Part shown: positions 3,929 through 22,614 of the stretch, piece after piece | How positions within the stretch are numbered: the first letter of the stretch is position 1 | Layout of the letters: each line of letters begins with the position of its first letter | Assembly: GCA_963774665.1 (NCBI GenBank) | Contig: CAVZGB010000015.1 | Location: 68,823-132,822, forward strand | Direction of reading: 5' to 3' | DNA from: an uncultured delta proteobacterium | GTDB taxonomy: Bacteria > Desulfobacterota > Binatia > Binatales > Binataceae | DNA: 64,000 bases | Notes under the pieces: generated by a model | Database searches by the model: none | What the model was told of the DNA's origin: nothing | The model's input: the letters and a program-made list of their open reading frames with translations, nothing else | Translations under genes and position numbers: made by a program

Positions 3929-4693
3929 ATGACGACGACCAATCAGAGCTGGGACCCCGACGGATACGCACGCAACGCCCGCTTCGTCTCCGACCTCGGC
4001 GCGCCGGTGGTCGAGCTGCTCGCGCCGCAGGTGGGCGAGCGAATCCTCGACCTCGGATGCGGTGACGGTGCGCTGACGATCAAGCTCGCCGCCATGGGCT
4101 GCGACGTGGTCGGCGTCGACGCGAGCGCGCCCCAGATCGAAGCTGCCCGACGCCTCGGTCTCGACGCGCGTGTCGCCGAGGGCGAGCGCCTTGCCTTCGA
4201 TGCCGAGTTCGACGCCGTCTTCAGCAACGCCGCTATCCATTGGATGAAACCGCCTGACGACGTGATCGCCGGCGTATGGCGCGCGCTCCGTCCCGGCGGC
4301 CGCTTCGTCGGCGAGTTCGGCGGCCACGGATGCGTCGAAACGATCAAGCGTGCACTGATCGACGCGCTCCGGCGCCGCGGCATCGATGGTGACGCGCTCA
4401 ATCCCTGGTATTTCCCGACCGTCGAGGATTACTCTGCGCGGCTCGCGCGCCGCGGGTTCGCCATCAGGTATATCGCATTGATTCCCCGCCCGACTCCGCT
4501 GCCGACCGAAATCAACGGATGGCTCGAAACTTTCGCGCAAAGCTTCATGGCGCCGCTGGCGGACGGCGATCGGTCCGATTTTATCGACGAGGTGCGCGAA
4601 GCATTGCGGCCTAATCTCTGCGATGCCAACGGCGGCAAATGGTTCGCCGACTACGTTCGCCTGCGATTCGCCGCCGACAAGCCGCGTGACTGA
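3929..4693 (+). CDS. class I SAM-dependent methyltransferase (trans-aconitate methyltransferase-like)
   Basis: Motif I ILDLGCGDGALT plus a downstream acidic motif. 254 aa. Confidence 0.8.
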   Translation: MTTTNQSWDPDGYARNARFVSDLGAPVVELLAPQVGERILDLGCGDGALTIKLAAMGCDVVGVDASAPQIEAARRLGLDARVAEGERLAFDAEFDAVFSNAAIHWMKPPDDVIAGVWRALRPGGRFVGEFGGHGCVETIKRALIDALRRRGIDGDALNPWYFPTVEDYSARLARRGFAIRYIALIPRPTPLPTEINGWLETFAQSFMAPLADGDRSDFIDEVREALRPNLCDANGGKWFADYVRLRFAADKPRD

Positions 4694-5608: not shown

Positions 5609-6799
5609 ATGGACTTTTCGCTGACCCCCAAGACCGAACAGTTGCGCAAGCGCGTCTCCGACTTCATGGACCAGTATGTCTTCCCCATCGAAAAAGATGT
5701 TCAGCGCGCGATGGGCGAGAGCGGCAATACTGAGCCGCAATCGCTGAAAGACGTCCGCAAAAAAGCCAAGGCCGAAGGCCTGTGGAACCTCTTCCTGCCC
5801 GACGAAAAATACGGCGCCGGCCTCAAGAACTACGAATACGCTCCGCTGTGCGAGCTGATGGGCCGCAGCCCGATCGGCGCGCGCGCGTTCAACTGCATGG
5901 CGCCCGACACCGGCAACATGGAAATCCTGGCCGAGTTCGGTACGCCGGATCAGAAAAAGCAGTGGCTGCAGAAATGTCTCGACGGCGAGATTCGCACCTG
6001 CTTCTCGATGACCGAGCCTGACACTCCGGGCTCCGATCCCACCCAGCTCAAGACCCGCGCGGTTCGCGACGGCGACAACTACGTGATCAACGGTCACAAG
6101 TGGTTCACCTCGAATGCGATCGGATCGGCCTTCGCGATCGCGATGGTCGTGACCGACCCCGAAGCGGAACCGCATCGCCGCGCCAGCCAGATAATCGTTC
6201 CGACCGACACCCCCGGATTCAACCTGATTCGTCCCGTGCCCGTGATGGGCCATACCGGCGGCGGCGGGCATTGCGAAATTATTTATAAAGATTGCCGCGT
6301 GCCGGTTACCAACCTGCTCGGCGAGGAAGGCGGCGGCTTCGCAATCTCGCAGGCACGCCTCGGTCCGGGACGCATCCACCATTGCATGCGCACGATCGGA
6401 ATCGCGGAACGCGCGCTCGAGCTGATGTGCAAGCGGGCGAGCACGCGCTTCACCCACGGCAGCTTTCTCGCCGACAAGTCGAACATCCAGGAATGGATCG
6501 CCAACTCGCGCATCGAGATCGATTCGTGCCGCCTGATGGTCATGCACGCGGCGTGGAAAATGGACACCGTGGGCAAGCGCGACTCGCGCAACGAGATCGC
6601 AATGATCAAAGTGATGTGCGCGAACATGGTGATGGTCGTGCTCGATCGCGCAATCCAGGTGTTCGGCGCGGCCGGCGTCAGCGACGACTTCCCGCTCGCG
6701 CGGATGTGGCGCGACAGCCGCGCACTTCGAATCGCCGACGGCCCCGACGAAGTGCATCGCATGACGATCGCGCGCCGCGAACTGCGCAAGTACAAGTGA
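5609..6799 (+). CDS. acyl-CoA dehydrogenase (ACAD10/ACAD11-type C-terminal domain family)
   Basis: 396 aa with typical ACAD blocks (FSMTEPDTPGSD, GHKWFTSNA, C-terminal QVFGAAGVSDDFPLARMWRD). An APH-like kinase gene follows it, as in the eukaryotic ACAD10/11 fusions. Confidence 0.9.
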   Translation: MDFSLTPKTEQLRKRVSDFMDQYVFPIEKDVQRAMGESGNTEPQSLKDVRKKAKAEGLWNLFLPDEKYGAGLKNYEYAPLCELMGRSPIGARAFNCMAPDTGNMEILAEFGTPDQKKQWLQKCLDGEIRTCFSMTEPDTPGSDPTQLKTRAVRDGDNYVINGHKWFTSNAIGSAFAIAMVVTDPEAEPHRRASQIIVPTDTPGFNLIRPVPVMGHTGGGGHCEIIYKDCRVPVTNLLGEEGGGFAISQARLGPGRIHHCMRTIGIAERALELMCKRASTRFTHGSFLADKSNIQEWIANSRIEIDSCRLMVMHAAWKMDTVGKRDSRNEIAMIKVMCANMVMVVLDRAIQVFGAAGVSDDFPLARMWRDSRALRIADGPDEVHRMTIARRELRKYK

Positions 6800-6837
6800 C
6801 CTTGAGGCAGACGCCGCATTGACGGTCTAATCCTGAT

Positions 6838-6872
6838 TGTTCCCTTCCCTCGCGGAAGGGATCTGGGGTTGG
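6838..6872. repeat. REP-like extragenic palindrome (family copy 2)
   Basis: cccttccc-tcgc-gggaaggg stem-loop followed by atctggggttgg. Lies between the ACAD stop and the phosphotransferase start. Confidence 0.55.
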
Positions 6873-6884
6873 CTGCATCGACGC

Positions 6885-7984
6885 ATGGCTGAACCGATAT
6901 CGATCTCGCCGTCGAATTCGGCGACGTCCGCGACGAGGAGCAACTCGACTGGAGCAAGCTCGTCGCGTATCTGCGCGAGAAACAACTGCCCGGCGCCGAC
7001 GCCCCAATGACCGTCAAGCAGTTCCGCGGCGGCTCGTCGAATCTCACCTACCTGCTGTGCTTCGGTGACCGCGAATGGGTGATGCGCCGGCCGCCGTTCG
7101 GCCCGCTGCCCGTGGGCGGTCACGACATGGGCCGCGAGTACCGCGTGCTCTCGCGCCTGTGGGAAGTCTTCAAGCCGGCGCCGCGCGGGATGCTCTACAG
7201 CGACGACGTATCGATCGTCGGCGCGCCATTCTTCGTGATGGAACGTCGCACCGGCATCGTAATCAAGAACCGCCAGCCGCTGCCGCTCGAGCTCGGCAAC
7301 GATCCTGCGATGTTCCGTGCGATGTCAGAAGGATTCATCGACACGCTCGCCGATTTGCACGGCGTCGACTACGCGTCGATCGGACTCGCGTCGCTCGGCA
7401 AGCCCGACGGATTCCTGAAGCGCCAGATAACCGGCTGGATGGGCCGATGGGAGAAAGCCAAGACGCGCGAAGTGCCGCTGATGGAAAAACTCGGCACATG
7501 GTTTCTCGACAACATGCCGGTGTCGCCGCCGCCCGTGCTCGTGCATAACGATTTCTACCTGCACAACGTCATGGTCGGTGCGGTTAATCACGGCGAGATA
7601 GTCGGCGTCTTCGACTGGGAGATGTCGACCATCGGCGATCCGTTGGTCGATCTCGGCATCGTGATGAACTACTGGCGCGACAAGAACGACCCGCCCGAGC
7701 TGCTGGGCACCTCACAGGGAGAAGCGCACACGCTGCGCCCCGGCTTCCTGACCCGCGACGAACTGCTGCATCGTTACGCGACACGCACCGGCCGCGACGT
7801 AAGCGCGATGCCGTATTACTGGGCCTGGGCGCACTGGAAAACCGCGACGGTGGTCGAGCAAATCTACGTCCGCTACGTCCGCGGCCAAACCACTGATCCG
7901 CGCTTCGCGCTGATGGGCCCAATGGCCCCAGCCCTAGCCCTCGCCGCCGCCCAAGTAGCCTCGCGACTAGGGTTCAGCGTTTAA
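6885..7984 (+). CDS. phosphotransferase-family protein (APH-like, ACAD10/11 N-terminal kinase-domain type), with an apparent 1-nt frameshift just after the start codon
   Basis: Track ORF 7007..7984 (325 aa) has APH motifs (GGSSNLTY, HNDFYLHNVM, DWEMSTIGDP). The conserved N-terminus EFGDVRDEEQLDWSKLVAYLREKQLPGADAP continues upstream in the same frame with no start codon. An ATG with MAEP lies at about 6885 in another frame, implying an indel near 6895-6905. Confidence 0.75.
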
Positions 7985-7990
7985 GCAGTA

Positions 7991-8455
7991 ATGGAACAAA
8001 TGAACCCGAACTCTGCAAATACGAAAAAAGGCCGAGATTTTCAGTTACGAGTACAGCAGGCTCTGGAGAGGATTGTCGGCGTCGAATTCGATCTAGAAGT
8101 CAAGATTCCGATTGGTGATCCACCGAAGGCTCGCCCGTTCGATTTGGCTTCCAGGAGTAGAGCGATCGTGGCCGAATGCAAGGCGTATGCGTGGACTGAG
8201 AGTGGAAATGTGCCTTCCGCAAAAATCACCACGCTCAGGGAGGCCGCCAACTATCTTCTTCAACTTCCTGCGAGCACGACCACGTTAATTGTGATGGACC
8301 GTCATTGTCATCCGAGAAGGGGAGAGGCGCTCGCTAACTACTTCGTCCGACTAAATTCGCATCTTCTTGGGCGAGTTTCGCTGCTGGAGTTGTCGAGTGA
8401 CGACACCCTCCGATTAATTCACGGCAAATTTCCCTCCTCAGGAAGTGAAACTTGA
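7991..8455 (+). CDS. small PD-(D/E)xK-like (restriction-endonuclease-fold) protein, candidate nuclease; hypothetical
   Basis: 154 aa encoded in the roughly 50% GC islet. It contains a hFD...(11 aa)...ExK pattern (RPFDLASRSRAIVAECKAY) preceded by acidic residues (EFDLEVK). No other family recognised. Confidence 0.45.
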   Translation: MEQMNPNSANTKKGRDFQLRVQQALERIVGVEFDLEVKIPIGDPPKARPFDLASRSRAIVAECKAYAWTESGNVPSAKITTLREAANYLLQLPASTTTLIVMDRHCHPRRGEALANYFVRLNSHLLGRVSLLELSSDDTLRLIHGKFPSSGSET

Positions 8456-8524
8456 CGGCTACGCTGTCACTGGAACTCGTTTCTGATTGCTTTTGCGAGG
8501 CTTAGTGAGCTCCAGCAATGAAAC

Positions 8525-9841
8525 TCATGCCTCAATCAAAAAGCTGCTGATCGCTCTTGACCAGTCTCTCTGCGAACTGAGATTTCGAGAAAGATCCGCT
8601 CGCTCAATCCAACTGGTTTTGACGTATCGATCAGGCCGTTCTCGAATTGTCTTGTTTTCGAAAGCTGCGACATTGGCCGGACCGGAGAATGACACCTGGA
8701 ATACTACGCCAACATGGCGAGCCGCCCGTTTATCTTCCGAGCTATGGACAATCCCAATTGGATGTAGATGGGGCAAATCTTCCAACGAGAGTTCTTCATG
8801 TAGTTCTCTTCGGAGACCTGTCAGGACGCTCTCCCACTTCGACTTGGCTTGATCCCTATCTTGCTTTCTTACGTGTCCCCCGGCCCAATTTCCGAAGGCT
8901 TCGTGAAGCGACTCGCCTGGTTCGAACCGAACGTTCGTCAGAAAGCGATTGCCATTTCGAATGATACAGACGGGGACGACCTGCAGGAGATCGTCCGAAG
9001 TCTCCGCAATCGATCTGGCCACGTACGTGCCTTTGCTATTTACCAGCTTTGAGAGCGTTTTCCACTTCGGCGTAATCATCTTCTTATCAGAAAGCTTGAT
9101 CTGTCCTTCGAGAGATTTACGCGGAATACAGAGAACCTCCTCGTCTGCGAATTTGCCAAAGCACCTCAGAAGGGTCTTTGCGATATCTGTGATCGTTTTC
9201 ATTTCCGGACCTCGACTGTTCTCGATAACTGTAATCGATTTGAAATCTGCTTTATATCTACGGGCCGCCTCCAAGTAGTGCCGGCGCAACTGGGTTAAAG
9301 TACCAATGTTCATTATGGCTCCATGGCGGAGCGTGATTTGCCTAGCGTACTCTCTGTCGATGGAGGTTTTTGCGTCGCAATGCATGACGAAAACCATATC
9401 GATCAGCCCGCGCCACCGTGGCGTCAATACAAAGCTGCGAAACCCTTCCGCTTCAGCTTTGGATACTCGGTGCGTTTTTTCCTGCCAGTCGATCCAAACT
9501 AGCCCGTCGAAAAGCCCTCTATCCAAGATAAGAACATCGAGTTTTTCGTCTTCGAGAGCTTCAATTATTCCGTTGAGCGTAGCGCATGTCACCCACGTGT
9601 TGAAGAAAGCGGTGCCCTTGTCCAATAACGGAGCAACCGAAGCGCGCTCCTGGAAAGTGCGGACCATAACGCCATTCCTTTTGAAGAACTGGTGTATTGC
9701 ACCAATCGTGGTCGTCTTTCCAGACTTCGGAGTGCCAGCAAACTCGATAATAAAAGGTCGGCGCTTGTCGGACAATCTTGGACGAATTAGGGAGATCTGT
9801 TTTTCGAGACGCGCGCGAACCTGCTGCATCGATCCATCCAT
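8525..9841 (-). CDS. fusion protein: N-terminal P-loop nucleotide/nucleoside-kinase-like domain (Walker A AGTPKSGKTT; hhhhDRG Walker B/DRx) plus C-terminal Nudix-like hydrolase domain (divergent Nudix box ...GGHV...E-x7-RELHEELSL)
   Basis: The track ORF is 8525..10150, but its first 103 codons are antisense to the high-GC HigA-like gene. Met104/Met108 (MDGSMQQ) at 9841 is preceded by ggggATGG and marks the drop to about 50% GC, so it is the more likely start. The DRG motif after a hydrophobic strand resembles dNK/TMPK-type kinases. The REUxEE core of the Nudix box is present, with a long insertion between GG and the Glu. Confidence 0.6.
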   Translation of the reverse strand: MDGSMQQVRARLEKQISLIRPRLSDKRRPFIIEFAGTPKSGKTTTIGAIHQFFKRNGVMVRTFQERASVAPLLDKGTAFFNTWVTCATLNGIIEALEDEKLDVLILDRGLFDGLVWIDWQEKTHRVSKAEAEGFRSFVLTPRWRGLIDMVFVMHCDAKTSIDREYARQITLRHGAIMNIGTLTQLRRHYLEAARRYKADFKSITVIENSRGPEMKTITDIAKTLLRCFGKFADEEVLCIPRKSLEGQIKLSDKKMITPKWKTLSKLVNSKGTYVARSIAETSDDLLQVVPVCIIRNGNRFLTNVRFEPGESLHEAFGNWAGGHVRKQDRDQAKSKWESVLTGLRRELHEELSLEDLPHLHPIGIVHSSEDKRAARHVGVVFQVSFSGPANVAAFENKTIRERPDRYVKTSWIERADLSRNLSSQRDWSRAISSFLIEA

Positions 9842-9963
9842 CCCCAATACCCCTATGTTTGCCGCCCTGTGGCGGCGCGACACCGGCGCATCAGGAAGCG
9901 GTCCGTTCCAATCTTCGACAAACGATAAGCGGCATAATAGTTTGGAAGAAGAGGCAAGCAAAG

Positions 9964-10327
9964 ATGGTTCGCTGAAACAAAATACCGCCTGCTTCACCCC
10001 GGGGTGGTCCTCTACGAGGACTTCATCGTGCCGACCGGCATCAGCATCCACCGACTTGCGATGGATCTGCGTGTGCCGGCCAATCGCATCGCGGAAATCG
10101 TGAAGGGCGAGCGCGCCATCTCGGCTGACACCGCACTTCGCCTCGCTCATTATCTCGGTACGTCTGCGGAATTCTGGCTTGGCTTGCAGAGCGATTGCGA
10201 TCTCGAAAAAGCCAGGGACGAGCTGGCGCCAAAAATTGAGTGCGAGGTTCAGCCACCAAACGTGCGGCGTAGTTCGCGTTCATCCGGCTCTTTTCAGCGA
10301 GCGGCAAGTACGCTATCCAAGGTATAA
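9964..10327 (+). CDS. higA: HigA-family (VapI-type) XRE antitoxin-like HTH protein, orphan, with an apparent frameshift right after the ATG
   Basis: The LLHPGVVLYEDF...GERAISADTALRLAHYLGTSAEFWLGLQSDCDL region matches the HigA antitoxin family (HPGEIL, HTH, FWLNLQ). The in-frame region upstream has no ATG. An SD (gaagagg) plus ATG at 9964 is in the -1 frame, and one extra G after the ATG would give MFAETKYRLLHPG. The track ORF starts at a GTG at 10004. Confidence 0.7.
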
Positions 10328-10368
10328 AGGCGGGTATAATCTTAGCCCGATCTGGAGGTTTTCCAACC

Positions 10369-11238
10369 TTGCACGCTATCAATTACGAAGCTCCAAGCAC
10401 GCTCGACCAGGCCGTCAGTATCCTCAAAACCCACGGCGAGAATGCGCGCCCGCTCTGCGGTGGCACCGATATCCTCATCCAGCTCCGCGCCGGAGTCCGC
10501 CGCACCGAGCACCTGGTTGACGTAAAGAAAATCAAAGAGCTGCAGACTCTCTCCTTCGATGCGAAGAAGGGGTTACGTCTCGGCGCCGCCGTCCCCTGCA
10601 TCGATATCAGCGAGAGCGACGTGATGCGCCGACACTACCCCGGCCTGACCGAGGCGGCTCATCTCATCGGCTCGCTGCAAATTCAGAATCGCGCCTCGGT
10701 CGGCGGCAATCTGTGCAACGGATCGCCGGCCGCGGACACGACGCCTGCCCTTATTGCCCTCGGTGCGCGCGCCCGAATCGTCGGCCCGAGCGGCGAGCGC
10801 GAAGTTCCCGTCGAGTCGTTCGTCGTATCTCCCGGACGCACTGTGCTCAAGCCCGGCGAGCTGCTGGTCGAATTGCTGATTCCCGCGCCCGCGCCGCATT
10901 CGAGCGACGCGTATCTGCGCTTCATCCCGCGCAACGAGATGGATATCGCGGTCGTCGGCGTCGGCGCGTCGGTCACTCTCGACGGCGACAAGGTGAAGGC
11001 GGCGCGCATCGGTCTTGGCGCAGTTGCGGCGACTCCGTTGCTCGCGACCAAAGCCGCCGACGCGCTCGTCGGCAAGAAATTCGACGACGCCTCACTCGAG
11101 GCCGCCGGACGCGCGGCGAGCGAGACCTGCAAACCAATCGACGACATGCGCGGGACAGCGGAATTTCGGCTGCACATCGCCGGCGTGCTCACCCGCCGCG
11201 CGCTGACAATCGCCGCCGAACGCGCGAAAAAGGCCTGA
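10369..11238 (+). CDS. molybdenum hydroxylase FAD-binding subunit (CoxM/CutM-like, xanthine dehydrogenase family medium subunit)
   Basis: 289 aa with LCGGTDILIQL, a FAD-binding fold and a CO-dehydrogenase flavoprotein C-terminal domain. TTG start with ggagg upstream. Confidence 0.85.
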   Translation: MHAINYEAPSTLDQAVSILKTHGENARPLCGGTDILIQLRAGVRRTEHLVDVKKIKELQTLSFDAKKGLRLGAAVPCIDISESDVMRRHYPGLTEAAHLIGSLQIQNRASVGGNLCNGSPAADTTPALIALGARARIVGPSGEREVPVESFVVSPGRTVLKPGELLVELLIPAPAPHSSDAYLRFIPRNEMDIAVVGVGASVTLDGDKVKAARIGLGAVAATPLLATKAADALVGKKFDDASLEAAGRAASETCKPIDDMRGTAEFRLHIAGVLTRRALTIAAERAKKA

Positions 11239-11811: not shown

Positions 11812-14101
11812 ATGGCGGCATCAACCACGACAGACAATTTCAAAGTTATCGGCACGCGTCCGATTCGGCACGACGGCGTTGATAAGGTCACCGGCCGCGC
11901 CAAGTACGGCGCTGACTACGCGTTCCCCGGAATGTTGCACGGCAAAGTGCTGCGCAGCCCGCACGCTCACGCGAATATCAAATCGATCAATATCGACAAG
12001 GCGCTTAAGCTCCCCGGCGTCAAGGCTATCGTCACCGGAAAGGATCTGCCGAAGGCCGAGAACAAGCTCGAGCAGGCCGGCGAAATGGTCATCAATCCGA
12101 TGTACCTGTCGATGAACATCCTCGCGCACGACAAGGTCCTGTATGACGGCCATGCGATCGCCGCCGTCGCCGCGACCAGCCCGCATATCGCCGAGGAAGC
12201 TTTGCGGCTGATCGAAGTCGAATACGAAGTGTTGCCGCCTGTCATGACTGTCGATGTCGCGACCAAGCCTGGCGCGCCGATTCTGCTGAAGGACCTGCGC
12301 AACAAGGAAGAGGGCGACAAGCCGACCAACGTCGCGCAGCACTACCAGTTCAAACGCGGCGACGTCGAAGCAGGATTCAAGGGCGCCGACTACGTGATCG
12401 AGCGCGAGTTCAATACCGCGATGGTCCACCAGGGATACATCGAGCCGCACAATGCCGTCGGCATCTACAACTCCGATGGACAGGCGACGATTTACTGCTC
12501 GACGCAGGGCGCCTTCGACGTGCGCTCGCTGAGCGCGCAGGTACTCGGGATGCCGGTCGGCCATATCAAAGTCGTGCCGGCTGAGATCGGCGGCGGCTTC
12601 GGCGGCAAGACTACCATCTATCTCGAGCCGCTCTCCGTCCTGCTGTCGAAGAAGACCGGCGCCCCGGTCAAGCTGGTGATGTCGCGCTCGGAAGTTCTCC
12701 GTGCGAGCGGCCCGACCTCGGGCTCCAAGATCAAAGTGAAGATGGGCGCGAGCAAGGACGGCAAACTCGTCGCCGCCGAAATCTGGATGGCCTACGAGGC
12801 TGGCGCGTTCCCCGGATCGCCGGTAGGCGCGGGCGCGATGTGCATCATCGCTCCTTACACCATCGAGAATTTCGTAATCGACGCGTACGACGTTGTCGTC
12901 AATCGCCCCAAGACCGCGGCCTATCGCGCGCCGGGCGCAACCAACGCCGCGTTCGCCTCCGAGACGATCATCGACGAGCTCGCCGAAAAGTGCGGAATCG
13001 ATCCGATCGATTTCCGCCTCAAGAACGCGGTCAAAGAGGGCGATGCGCAGGTTGTCGGTCCTCCGTTCAAGCGCATCGGATTGATCCAGACGCTCGAAGG
13101 GAATCAAGAACAGCCCGCACTACAAGTCCAAAGTGACCGGCAAGTTCCGTGGACGCGGCGTCGCATCGGGCTTCTGGTTCAACGCCGGGATGCAATCGTC
13201 GGCCACGGTGAATATCCATGCCGACGGAACCGCCAGCGTCGTGACCGGCTCGCCGGATATCGGCGGCTCGCGCGCTTCGATGGCGATGATCACCGCCGAA
13301 GTTCTCGGACTTCCGGTGACGGACGTCCGCCCGATCACCGCCGACACCGATTCGATCGGGCATACCGACGTCACTGGCGGCAGCCGCGTGACCTTCGCAA
13401 CCGGCATGGCGGTGTACGAGGCAGCCAAGGACGCCGAGCGCCAGCTGATCGAGCGCGCCGCCAAGGTCTGGGAGAAAAAGCCCGACGAGGTGGAATTCCG
13501 CGACGGCATGCTTCACGCGAAAGGCAACGGCGTGCCGCCGATGTCGCTCAAGCAGCTCGCGCCCCGCTTTGCGCGCACGGGCGGTCCGATCACCGGTCGT
13601 GCGAGCGTGAACGCCCGCGGCGTAGGTCCCGGGTTCGCGACGACGCTCGTCGACGTCGAGGTCGATCCCGATACCGGCAAAGTACAAATCCTGCGATGCA
13701 CCGTCGCGCAAGATGCGGGCAAGGCGATTCATCCGAGCTACGTCGAAGGACAGATGCAGGGCGGCACCGCGCAGGGACTCGGATGGGCGCTCAACGAGGA
13801 ATACTTTTACGACGACAAGGGCACGCTGCGTAACTCCGGATTTCTCGACTACCGTATGCCCACCTGCCTCGACCTGCCGATGATCGAAACCGTCGTGGTC
13901 GAGGAAGCAAACCCCGGTCATCCGCTGGGCGTGCGCGGCGTCGGCGAGGTATCGATCGTGCCGCCGGTCGCAGCGGTAGCCAACGCTATCTATCGTGCGG
14001 TCGGCGTCAGGATGACGGAGACCCCGATGTCGCCGCCGAAGCTGCTGAAAGCGATGCTGAAGCATCGTGACTCGACAAAACATTCCGCTGCGGCGGATTG
14101 A
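11812..14101 (+). CDS. molybdopterin-binding large subunit of a xanthine dehydrogenase/CO-dehydrogenase-family enzyme (form II-like AYRAPG motif, not bona fide CO dehydrogenase), with an apparent frameshift near 13095-13110
   Basis: N-terminal 430 aa in frame 1 (track ORF 11812..) and C-terminal 322 aa in frame 2 (13133..14101). Both are CoxL/XdhA-like. Frame 2 already reads ...NSPHYKSKVTGKFRGRGVASGFWFN upstream of 13133, so one indel near gaagggaatcaag explains the split. Confidence 0.8.
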
Positions 14102-21277: not shown

Positions 21278-21577
21278 CTAATGGTCGCGTCCGCCTCGGC
21301 GTTCGCCACCGCCGCCACCGGCTCCGCCGCTGCGCGCCTGTGCTTCGTTGACGCGGATCGGGCGGCCCTTGATGTCGCGGCCGTTCAGTTTCTTGATTGC
21401 GCCTTCGGCCGCTTCATCGGTTCCCATCTCGACGAAACCGAATCCTCGTGAGCGGTTGGTGGCGCGGTCGATGATGACTTGCGAGCTGTCCACCTTTCCT
21501 GCTTCTGAAAATACGTCGAGCAGATCCTGGTCGGTCACAGTCCAAGCCAGATTCCCAACATACAGTCTGCGGCCCAT
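21278..21577 (-). CDS. glycine-rich RNA-binding protein with a single RRM domain
   Basis: RNP2 LYVGNL and RNP1 RGFGFVEM with a Gly/Arg-rich tail. Start at Met8 of the track ORF, preceded by aaggagag. Confidence 0.85.
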   Translation of the reverse strand: MGRRLYVGNLAWTVTDQDLLDVFSEAGKVDSSQVIIDRATNRSRGFGFVEMGTDEAAEGAIKKLNGRDIKGRPIRVNEAQARSGGAGGGGGERRGGRDH

Positions 21578-22230
21578 TACCCCTCTCCTTGCGCGCAACC
21601 CCTGAGTGTGTCTCGGGGCGTCCGGCGTTTGCGGCTATACCAAGAGCGCGCATCTGGTCAAAATTCCGAGATGCTTATACCATCGCACCAATCGCAAACA
21701 TAGGGCTTTTTTGATCCTATTCACTGCGTTTGTTGCCCGATTTGCCCTAACAAAAACCGACCCGCCAGGCAGTCACTTAGGATCAAAATACGAATGCTAA
21801 TACGTAGTATTGGAAGCATTGAGCTTTCTGGATGACTCTAAAATCGTTTTGACGTACGCCTTCAGCGGCTATGGTTGCAAATGTGCCTGAAGTTAAAGGC
21901 TGATGCGGTTCTCGCAAAGGGTAGAACACCTGCAGTTAGTGTCATCGACAAGGGATAGGGGCCGTCGCCGCGCACTTCACAAGATCGAGGCCTCTTTCCC
22001 GTTCGCGAACCTGTTGGTGCGGTAACCTGGCATCGATGACTAAGAAAACTTTCCAGCGTGTGACTATATGGCTGCATAAGCCAAACATCAATTCGAAACA
22101 CTACCGGCTATATGCAGTTGGACGATGTTGATAGTGCACAAAATGACTTTGATACTTGTAGCTGCGGGATCGATTGTGTATGTTCAAATTTGATTTGTAC
22201 TGATCACTTCCCGGAAAAGGAGATAGCTAC

Positions 22231-22614
22231 ATGCCTCGCAAAGATACTTCTCGCGGAGCCGCATCTGCCTTCCAGCAAGTACAGCGGCAAGCGCGCACCT
22301 TGTTACTCAATCTACGCAAGGAGATCCGCCTGAAGGAATCGGTACTGAGTAAACTGAAACAAGAGGAAGCGCGACTTGGATCCTTGATCGGCAGAGTGGG
22401 CGGTTCGGCAAAGTCTGTAAGCAGCGGACCGACCGGCCGGGTCAATTGGCGCGCGGTGCTTTCGGCACTACCCAAGCAGTTCAAGGCCGCCGACGTGCGA
22501 AATGTGCGGGGACTTAAAGGGAAGCGGCCGTCGGAAATTTTCGCGGCAATTACGCGATGGATCGATGCAGGCGCTGCAAAACGCAAAGCACGCGGAGTAT
22601 ACGAAAAAGTTTAA
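22231..22614 (+). CDS. hypothetical basic protein (coiled-coil N-terminus)
   Basis: 127-aa ORF with a good SD (aaaaggagat). No family recognised. Confidence 0.4.
   Translation: MPRKDTSRGAASAFQQVQRQARTLLLNLRKEIRLKESVLSKLKQEEARLGSLIGRVGGSAKSVSSGPTGRVNWRAVLSALPKQFKAADVRNVRGLKGKRPSEIFAAITRWIDAGAAKRKARGVYEKV

Follow-up and report, generated by a model that had tools for sequence, protein, structure and literature searches.

Do two genes that share a small patch of foreign-looking DNA work together, or do they only share an address? The question is raised by a stretch of 64,000 nucleotides (here called the window, at its full length) from an uncultured member of the Binataceae (assembly GCA_963774665.1, contig CAVZGB010000015.1, positions 68,823 to 132,822 of the forward strand). 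Within it lies an islet of low GC content that holds two genes. One, here called SMALL, encodes a nuclease-like protein. The other, here called KINNUD, encodes what appears to be a nucleotide kinase fused to a Nudix module. An initial annotation, made from the letters of the DNA, regarded both as horizontally acquired cargo typical of defense or addiction, forming a pairing that belongs to no named system. The answer reached here is different in one essential respect. The two genes do not form a pair; they differ in distribution, in age at the locus, and in insertion point. We consider it probable that the islet is a mosaic in which two single-gene cassettes, acquired independently, came to be stacked in a hypervariable spacer; the gene sets on either side of this spacer are conserved in Candidatus Binatus. 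Its parts are the following.

7985-9945, no strand: low-GC islet, two stacked cassettes in the variable gap between APH and higA/CoxM, delimited by GC content and by edges aligned to relatives
7991-8455, plus strand: SMALL, 154 residues, nuclease-like protein with a PD-(D/E)xK fold, unnamed family
8456-8524, no strand: spacer of 69 nucleotides separating the two convergent stop codons, read off the sequence
8525-9841, minus strand: KINNUD, 438 residues, predicted fusion of a nucleotide kinase and a Nudix module
8528-9145, minus strand: TM1382-type Nudix module of KINNUD, about residues 233-438
9152-9841, minus strand: kinase domain of KINNUD, about residues 1-230, with a P-loop fold like those of thymidylate and deoxynucleoside kinases
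9842-9945, minus strand: 5' region of KINNUD, with a 6-bp hairpin at 9861-9876

The independence of the two genes is seen when the window is compared with a syntenic relative (L001, on a 328-kb contig) that has the same arrangement of SMALL and KINNUD. Here, the DNA of KINNUD is 91-95% identical, much as the flanks are, while that of SMALL is 68-79% identical. Synonymous divergence (dS) is 0.26 for KINNUD, 0.28 for the flanking gene ACAD, 0.46 for APH, and 0.52 for CoxM, but 1.6 for SMALL, a sixfold gap between two genes compared in the same two genomes. The divergent block is confined to 7985-8500, from the APH stop codon to the spacer before the KINNUD stop codon. As the divergence is limited to SMALL, the SMALL allele must have been exchanged independently of its neighbors.

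Other Binatus loci supply the insertion point. Four of these (L101, L103, L104, and L047) run from the APH stop codon through only 14 nucleotides to the KINNUD stop codon. The 525-bp SMALL cassette therefore occupies what is elsewhere a 14-nucleotide spacer. The reverse arrangement is also found. L183 and L184 (positions 4001-4471) show what a deletion has left of the islet in another Binatus population: KINNUD has been lost, and the SMALL that follows APH breaks off near residue 107, where it is joined out of frame to the 3' part of higA.

The wider distributions are equally separate. A metagenome scan with a KINNUD profile gave 310 stretches encoding relatives, and 80 loci of these were retrieved. 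None of them, save the syntenic L001, contains SMALL. Conversely, homologs of SMALL outside Binatus were never found beside KINNUD in the contexts examined.

All this bears on the view that SMALL and KINNUD make up one two-gene system for defense or addiction, in which (for example) a nuclease effector is governed by a kinase-Nudix protein that senses, makes, or destroys a nucleotide signal. The genes are, of course, adjacent, convergent, and both low in GC; they are kept together in the window and in L001/L002, and both are under purifying selection. Further, Nudix and nuclease domains each occur in immunity based on nucleotide signaling (PMC9503650). Yet KINNUD occurs without SMALL in about 80 metagenome loci, and again in L019, L047, and L101-L104, while SMALL occurs without KINNUD in every non-Binatus context examined. 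The sixfold difference in dS gives the two genes different histories in the same two genomes, their convergent orientation rules out an operon, and PADLOC matches neither of them. The distribution data have already largely refuted the two-gene system, and we consider it very improbable. The initial annotation was correct in that PADLOC, NCBIfam, and Pfam name nothing above threshold here; it was the notion of a pairing that failed.

What, then, makes the islet look foreign? Between 7985 and 9990 the GC content is 50.7%, against a mean of 60.5% for the window. The lowest 2-kb interval in the entire 64 kb starts at 7951, at 0.5085, which is about 4.5 standard deviations below the mean of all such intervals (0.606, standard deviation 0.021). 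Across approximately 7950-10000 the profile falls from 0.60-0.67 to 0.47-0.55. The deficit is found at third codon positions, where GC is 0.53 in SMALL and 0.55 in KINNUD, versus 0.82 in ACAD, 0.82 in APH, and 0.78 in CoxM. Thus, the sharp drop to about 50% in the initial annotation stands, as does foreign acquisition. The flanks, which it placed uniformly at 65-67%, in fact vary from 60 to 67%. Alignment with relatives puts the left edge exactly where it had been drawn, at the APH stop codon (7984), and the right edge near 9945, just 5' of the ribosome-binding site of higA and slightly beyond the 9850-9900 first proposed.

No mobility machinery accompanies this foreign composition. There is no integrase reading frame close to the islet, no tRNA in the whole 64-kb window, and no convincing or significant direct or inverted repeat flanking the borders. 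The features by which a classical genomic island or integrative element is recognized, namely an integrase, a tRNA as target, and direct repeats at the flanks, were therefore not found, as the initial annotation had noted when it described two convergent genes with bare borders. An Rfam scan of 7000-10500 gave no match. A scan of 7800-10400 for promoters and terminators gave sites no more often than expected from shuffled sequence, and none that resembles a terminator lies inside the 69-nucleotide spacer.

Some details of gene layout need mention. Homologs suggest that SMALL probably starts at 8000, at its second methionine, to give 151 residues. KINNUD has an alternative start at 9829, which would give 434 residues. 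Upstream of the KINNUD start is a segment of about 45 nucleotides that is common to KINNUD loci in differing contexts and diverged in the window and in L001. A mechanical open reading frame of 541 residues, extending KINNUD to 10150, is an artifact; it is not credible because it runs antisense through higA.

The spacer that holds the islet is bounded by genes that do not change. The features that frame it are these.

7007-7984, plus strand: left flank, APH-family phosphotransferase gene (Pfam APH, 4.4e-42), conserved with the upstream ACAD in all relatives
9964-10327, plus strand: orphan higA antitoxin gene with a damaged 5' end, recognized by TIGR02607 (antidote_HigA) and by alignment with intact higBA loci
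10369-11238, plus strand: right flank, CoxM-like FAD-binding subunit (FAD_binding_5, 6e-47; CO_deh_flav_C, 1e-29), the first gene of an operon like those for cox and xanthine dehydrogenase, conserved in relatives

A scan with the APH protein, taking one genome per species, gave 80 loci, nearly all from metagenome-assembled genomes of Candidatus Binatus or other Binataceae. Throughout, the left side keeps ACAD and APH, and the right side keeps the operon led by CoxM. What lies between them is not conserved. In the 29 close relatives that show both flanks (close meaning that APH is 85-97% identical), the gap between APH and CoxM ranges from 163 bp (L040) to 5603 bp (L035); in more distant Binataceae, it is often just 120-250 bp. 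The gap may be empty, or it may carry higB-higA, a second RelE/XRE pair, an SDR, a TetR regulator, an aldo-keto reductase, or a catalase-related protein. The commonest cargo (in relatives L017-L048) is a secreted DUF1329-like protein of about 450 residues. In two of these (L017 and L019) the DUF1329-like gene is itself fragmented.

SMALL is in none of these 80 genome loci. KINNUD is in only two (L019 and L047), and both copies are broken. The first is a pseudogene with many frameshifts; the second has lost its first 74 residues, including the P-loop, and carries a frameshift as well. The islet is, then, foreign-looking variable cargo that most close relatives lack.

One might still argue that low GC reflects not foreign origin, but rather local selection on native genes, for expression perhaps, or their amino acid composition. 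Copies of KINNUD in Binatus lineages remain at about 50-52% GC even where synonymous divergence between them is saturated (dS > 2), a pattern that could mean constraint instead of recent arrival. Close relatives nevertheless have empty sites or other cargo at the very same position, the deficit is concentrated at third codon positions (0.53-0.55 versus about 0.8), and the edges of the islet coincide with junctions of gene cassettes. The presence and absence data already contradict this explanation, to which we give almost no credence.

The right edge of the islet preserves a trace of what was there before, one absent from the initial annotation. The gene at 9964-10327 scores 86 bits against TIGR02607, whose cut-off is 47.7, and includes an HTH domain (HTH_3, 3.9e-7), but the match begins only at profile position 10. 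The original ATG is retained at 9964. Codon 4, however, is TGA where relatives have CGA, and one nucleotide has been inserted near 9988. Because of the TGA codon and the insertion, a protein could be made only by restarting at a GTG at 10004. In L001, the orphan higA is intact, encoding 102 residues. Neither an upstream higB nor an intact higA, the two parts of a HigBA module, was found in the window. Other relatives (L018, L035, L038, L041, and L043) have higB at exactly this position. In L019, the last codons of higB persist beside the KINNUD pseudogene. Since the right junction lies just 5' of the higA ribosome-binding site, and since L019 retains this remnant, the islet can be said to have replaced higB. 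The higA of the window seems to be decaying after that loss.

Turning to the proteins, SMALL yields an alignment-based model of high confidence (pLDDT 92.7) with a helix-strand-strand-strand-helix-strand core, the core fold of the PD-(D/E)xK nucleases. In 82 homologs, F50, E62, K64, and a P-S-A-K-I motif (75-79) are invariant, and D51 is nearly so. D51 falls on strand 2 (46-54) and E62 and K64 fall on strand 3 (59-64), reproducing the D...(D/E)-x-K catalytic pattern; the PSAKITTLRE motif is specific to the family. This family is rare, with 752 clusters at E<=0.001 among 1.84 billion representative proteins. Most members stand alone at 140-155 residues, while some are fused to DUF7669 or DUF2971. 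Nothing usable was found for SMALL in Pfam (E<=0.1), PADLOC, NCBIfam, or PHROGs. Scans of viral contigs gave no relative, and a tblastn search of cultured phages and plasmids gave three distant plasmid matches, labeled "hypothetical" and located in accessory regions. With dN/dS of 0.09 (the dN/dS comparison leaves out the row for L103), the gene is under purifying selection. From its fold and conserved residues, SMALL is predicted to be a functional, solitary, metal-dependent endonuclease of the PD-(D/E)xK type.

The neighbors of SMALL homologs hint at what such a nuclease might do. These include DUF429, a PLD-like gene, a restriction-enzyme-like gene, and Mom (L010); a TIR protein (L181); Pnkp/Hen1 with a large, STAND-like AAA_16 NTPase (L179); integrases with a resolvase (L014); and a UvrD-like helicase (L016). 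Because such contexts are typical of conflict or mobile regions, and because its allele was exchanged, a conflict-related role for SMALL is suggested and plausible. No methyltransferase or other fixed partner recurs in the contexts examined. As side observations, SMALL homologs in L010-L013 (4219-5456) and in L181/L182 (3217-4456) have a divergent DUF429 gene about 95 bp upstream, an association that may be real or may be merely lineage synteny, and in L010-L013 the PLD-like gene overlaps the stop codon of the SMALL homolog by 4 bp.

Two more specific identities were considered for SMALL and set aside. It is not the nuclease of a type II restriction-modification system, as it has no cognate methyltransferase and stands alone between the APH and KINNUD stop codons; methyltransferase genes do lie about 2.5-4 kb upstream, and these are conserved in relatives that have no SMALL. 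Nor is it XisH (PF08814), which it resembles in structure only, having no Pfam match at E<=0.1 and no adjacent partner.

KINNUD also gives a confident model (pLDDT 91.5). Its N-terminal half has a P-loop kinase fold, with a Walker A motif, a D-R-x motif, and a lid. Its C-terminal half has a Nudix fold and forms a module like TM1382 (PDB 3e57), in which R345, E346, E349, and E350 of the Nudix box are invariant. The kinase half scores below the thresholds of known families (20.2 against 27 bits for PF02223; 16.8 against 83 bits for TIGR00041), and KINNUD is accordingly not a member of the dTMP kinase equivalog, to which it is related in fold only. PADLOC returned nothing at E<=1, and NCBIfam returned only sub-threshold matches to kinases and Nudix proteins. 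With dN/dS of 0.04-0.06, KINNUD too is under purifying selection, and in the window it is intact, as SMALL is. Both domain assignments agree with the initial annotation, which had recognized a PD-(D/E)xK-like protein of 154 residues and a P-loop kinase fused to a Nudix-like domain. KINNUD may thus be described as a probable bifunctional nucleotide enzyme, judging from its folds and conserved residues.

The fusion is widespread, with 263 homologs at E<=0.001 among 8,000 scored candidates, the full-length ones listed being mostly 438-460 residues long. JGI labels such homologs "predicted NUDIX family phosphoesterase/thymidylate kinase." PHROGs gave two matches, and scans of viral contigs gave two relatives having the kinase domain only; no KINNUD was detected when cultured phages and plasmids were searched by tblastn. 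Viral structures that match it cover single domains (stand-alone TM1382-like Nudix proteins of jumbo phages; viral dTMP and deoxynucleoside kinases), and no protein among these matches carries both. In the literature searched (TM1382, COG4112, Nudix with thymidylate or P-loop kinase), no description of a kinase-Nudix fusion was found.

Does KINNUD travel? Among loci from many lineages with enough flanking sequence, its GC content is more than 3 points below that of the flanks in 44 of 49, by 7.5 points on average, and the deficit holds even beside the nuo operon. Another Binataceae genome (L003) carries KINNUD 350 kb away from the APH locus; the surroundings there, which include an HTH_17, a clamp-like, and an AAA_25 gene along with many small reading frames, resemble a mobile element. 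Integrases lie near KINNUD homologs in five loci. Together with patchy occurrence, repeated pseudogenes in Binatus, and the replacement of a toxin gene, these features are evidence for a mobile or accessory nature.

Some KINNUD loci contain a further gene. In 19 of the 80 metagenome loci (L120, L122, L123, L127, L128, L131, L133, L135-L137, L141-L143, L147, L148, L162, L165, L172, and L175), a second Nudix-like protein of about 200 residues (GGH...RELWEE) is encoded just downstream of a distant KINNUD homolog, on the same strand. This gene is absent from the window. The two may form a possible two-gene module. Other candidate partners were rejected. The gene of 135 residues beside KINNUD in L003 is not a homolog of SMALL; the 533-residue and Nudix genes beside a SMALL homolog in L016 are not a split KINNUD; and a HigA-like regulator accompanies just 1 of approximately 70 non-Binatus loci, making it no partner of KINNUD.

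Some observations on the flanks concern the quality of the sequence. The CoxL-like gene at 11812-14098 is split between two frames near 13100 (13090-13120), with 96% identity to L001 on both sides. The break, a genuine frameshift or else an assembly indel, affects how much trust small indels in the window deserve. Upstream of 7007, the APH gene has its N-terminal stretch of about 40 residues (EFGDVRDEEQLDWSKL...), conserved with L001. Between 6890 and 7007 there is an in-frame stop, with no ATG, GTG, or TTG between it and 7007, as would be expected if the start codon were unusual, the gene truncated, or the sequence in error. ACAD and an APH-type kinase are also paired (here at 5609-7984) in the eukaryotic ACAD10/ACAD11 fusions and in bacterial clusters for hydroxy-acid catabolism; the pair is housekeeping metabolism, unrelated to the islet. 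GC content in the window has its second-lowest dip over 21501-22500 (0.51), which is no obvious islet; the feature (21278-22230) holds a gene for a glycine-rich RNA-binding protein of the RRM type, 106 residues long, together with a long non-coding stretch.

These data support a history in which single genes were stacked and exchanged. The spacer would formerly have held a higBA toxin-antitoxin pair. A KINNUD cassette, consisting of the gene and about 100 nucleotides upstream, would then have replaced higB, orphaning the higA that is now damaged. The SMALL cassette (about 525 bp) would have been inserted later, between the convergent stop codons of APH and KINNUD, and its allele would afterwards have been exchanged between lineages. 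Such turnover may proceed by homologous recombination through the conserved flanks, as suggested by the missing integrase, tRNA, and repeats.

At the level of function, SMALL would cut nucleic acid in a metal-dependent manner. The kinase domain of KINNUD would phosphorylate a (deoxy)nucleoside monophosphate or a nucleoside, and its Nudix module would hydrolyze a derivative of a nucleoside di- or triphosphate. The two would act separately, with SMALL most likely serving as a solitary, conflict-related nuclease. KINNUD, by analogy with DcdV/AvcD, would most likely reshape or deplete the pool of (deoxy)nucleotides. A role of this kind in conflict, by depletion or editing of the pool, is one that we would put forward tentatively; a role in the sanitation or salvage of nucleotides is likewise possible, and ranks next.

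Those who prefer a metabolic explanation would go further and deny any conflict. On this view, KINNUD is an ordinary, patchily distributed enzyme of nucleotide metabolism whose Nudix module cleans or converts a non-canonical or surplus (d)NTP to its monophosphate, and whose kinase salvages a (d)NMP; SMALL is then an unrelated nuclease gene, selfish or decaying. Homologs of KINNUD do adjoin genes for nuo, carboxyltransferase, hemB, and gyrase, the second Nudix-like gene downstream in 19 of 80 loci suggests a metabolic module, and KINNUD was inherited vertically between the window and L001. B. subtilis YmaB and TM1382 presumably belong to one family (COG4112). An indirect biochemical hint, the only one, comes from YmaB, a Nudix protein whose gene is part of the nrd operon and for which there is preliminary evidence of dNTP pyrophosphohydrolase activity (PMC5960316). 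It would, however, be an odd metabolic gene that is poorer in GC than its flanks in so many loci, is missing from most close Binatus relatives and a pseudogene in two, lies in a mobile-element-like region in L003 and near integrases in five loci, and replaced a toxin gene in a variable spacer, which is unusual for housekeeping enzymes. On balance, this explanation is unlikely. So, and more so, is its most ambitious opposite, in which KINNUD founds an undescribed family of single-protein effectors against phages or mobile elements. There, the Nudix module would strip (d)NTPs to monophosphates upon infection under control of the kinase-like domain, SMALL would be a separate defense gene encoding a solitary nuclease, and the APH-CoxM spacer of Binatus would be a miniature defense hotspot.

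Several facts weigh against a mosaic of cassettes with roles in conflict. Distant KINNUD homologs adjoin mostly housekeeping genes (the nuo operon in 11 loci, carboxyltransferase, gyrase, hemB), and PADLOC matches among 146 proteins encoded near KINNUD are single and scattered. As its neighbors are mainly housekeeping and such matches sporadic, KINNUD does not look like a typical defense-island gene. Neither islet protein matches PADLOC itself. Because its dS against L001 is like that of the flanks, KINNUD has been vertically inherited at the locus for some time. Its Nudix box is atypical, with non-canonical spacing of the upstream G and E and no G in EExGU (R-E-L-H-E-E-L-S-L), and Pfam NUDIX gives 17.3 bits against a cut-off of 21.1. 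Recombination through the flanks is deduced from the missing mobility genes. Assembly indels may contribute to the lesion in higA; they are possible there because the window has the CoxL frameshift. The nonsense substitution in higA is, of course, a lesion separate from any indel. The biological role is the weakest step, the activities of both proteins being predicted. Thus, the label of defense or addiction in the initial annotation must be divided. For SMALL it is plausible, given the TIR, PLD, restriction-like, STAND-like, and integrase contexts of its homologs; for KINNUD, with its housekeeping neighbors, a role in defense is circumstantial.

The mosaic of two cassettes carries a simple lesson, that two genes found in one islet are not thereby a system. 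The locus is a natural record of how single genes, in a spacer flanked by conserved ones and with no mobility machinery, are stacked, exchanged, and lost, and this record comes from the Binatia, a poorly studied soil phylum. Two uncharacterized families gain confident structural models and named catalytic residues; both families, it must be said, are already catalogued, and the locus is an ordinary kind of variable spacer. Experimental study of the kinase-Nudix fusion would be reasonable. Should it prove to be a sanitation enzyme, TM1382, an orphan of structural genomics, would acquire a function.

How do these elements compare with systems already known? Spacers between core genes are known to collect accessory and toxin-antitoxin genes. 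As in those, the flanks here are conserved, the cargo is variable and poor in GC, some sites are empty, and mobility genes are absent. The APH-CoxM spacer differs from typical examples in being small (up to about 6 kb), and in that its cargo in relatives is largely metabolic rather than defensive. SMALL is best set beside solitary PD-(D/E)xK nucleases such as XisH, the CdiA-CT toxin nucleases, and small restriction endonucleases. It differs from these in having no Pfam match and no XisI, immunity, or methyltransferase partner.

For KINNUD, each half has its own counterpart. TM1382 is a single-domain, uncharacterized protein, while the module of its type in KINNUD is fused to a kinase domain. 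Thymidylate and deoxynucleoside kinases do not have a Nudix fusion as a family feature, and KINNUD scores far below the cut-offs of those families. Bifunctional enzymes of NAD metabolism (NadM-Nudix and NadR) have an NMN adenylyltransferase domain that KINNUD lacks, and its Nudix module is of the TM1382 type, not of the ADP-ribose pyrophosphatase type.

The closest parallel in design is DcdV, a phage defense protein in which a P-loop kinase is fused to a dCMP/dCTP deaminase. In DcdV (also AvcD), the collapse of deoxycytidine pools requires both domains, and the protein is held in check by a small RNA (DifV/AvcI) encoded upstream (bioRxiv 10.1101/2021.03.31.437871). KINNUD is not a member of this family, as it has no deaminase domain and no PADLOC match at E<=1; a Nudix module stands in place of the deaminase, and KINNUD is known here from sequence and model. 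As for an RNA partner, Rfam gave no match, and only the partly conserved segment of about 45 nucleotides upstream was seen. In both, however, an N-terminal domain like a P-loop kinase and a C-terminal domain that acts (in KINNUD, by prediction) on free nucleotides are joined in one polypeptide, and both are found in genomic islands. KINNUD may, by this analogy, work like DcdV. Immunity by nucleotide depletion would gain a Nudix-based branch if the fusion does act in infection by depleting or editing nucleotide pools.

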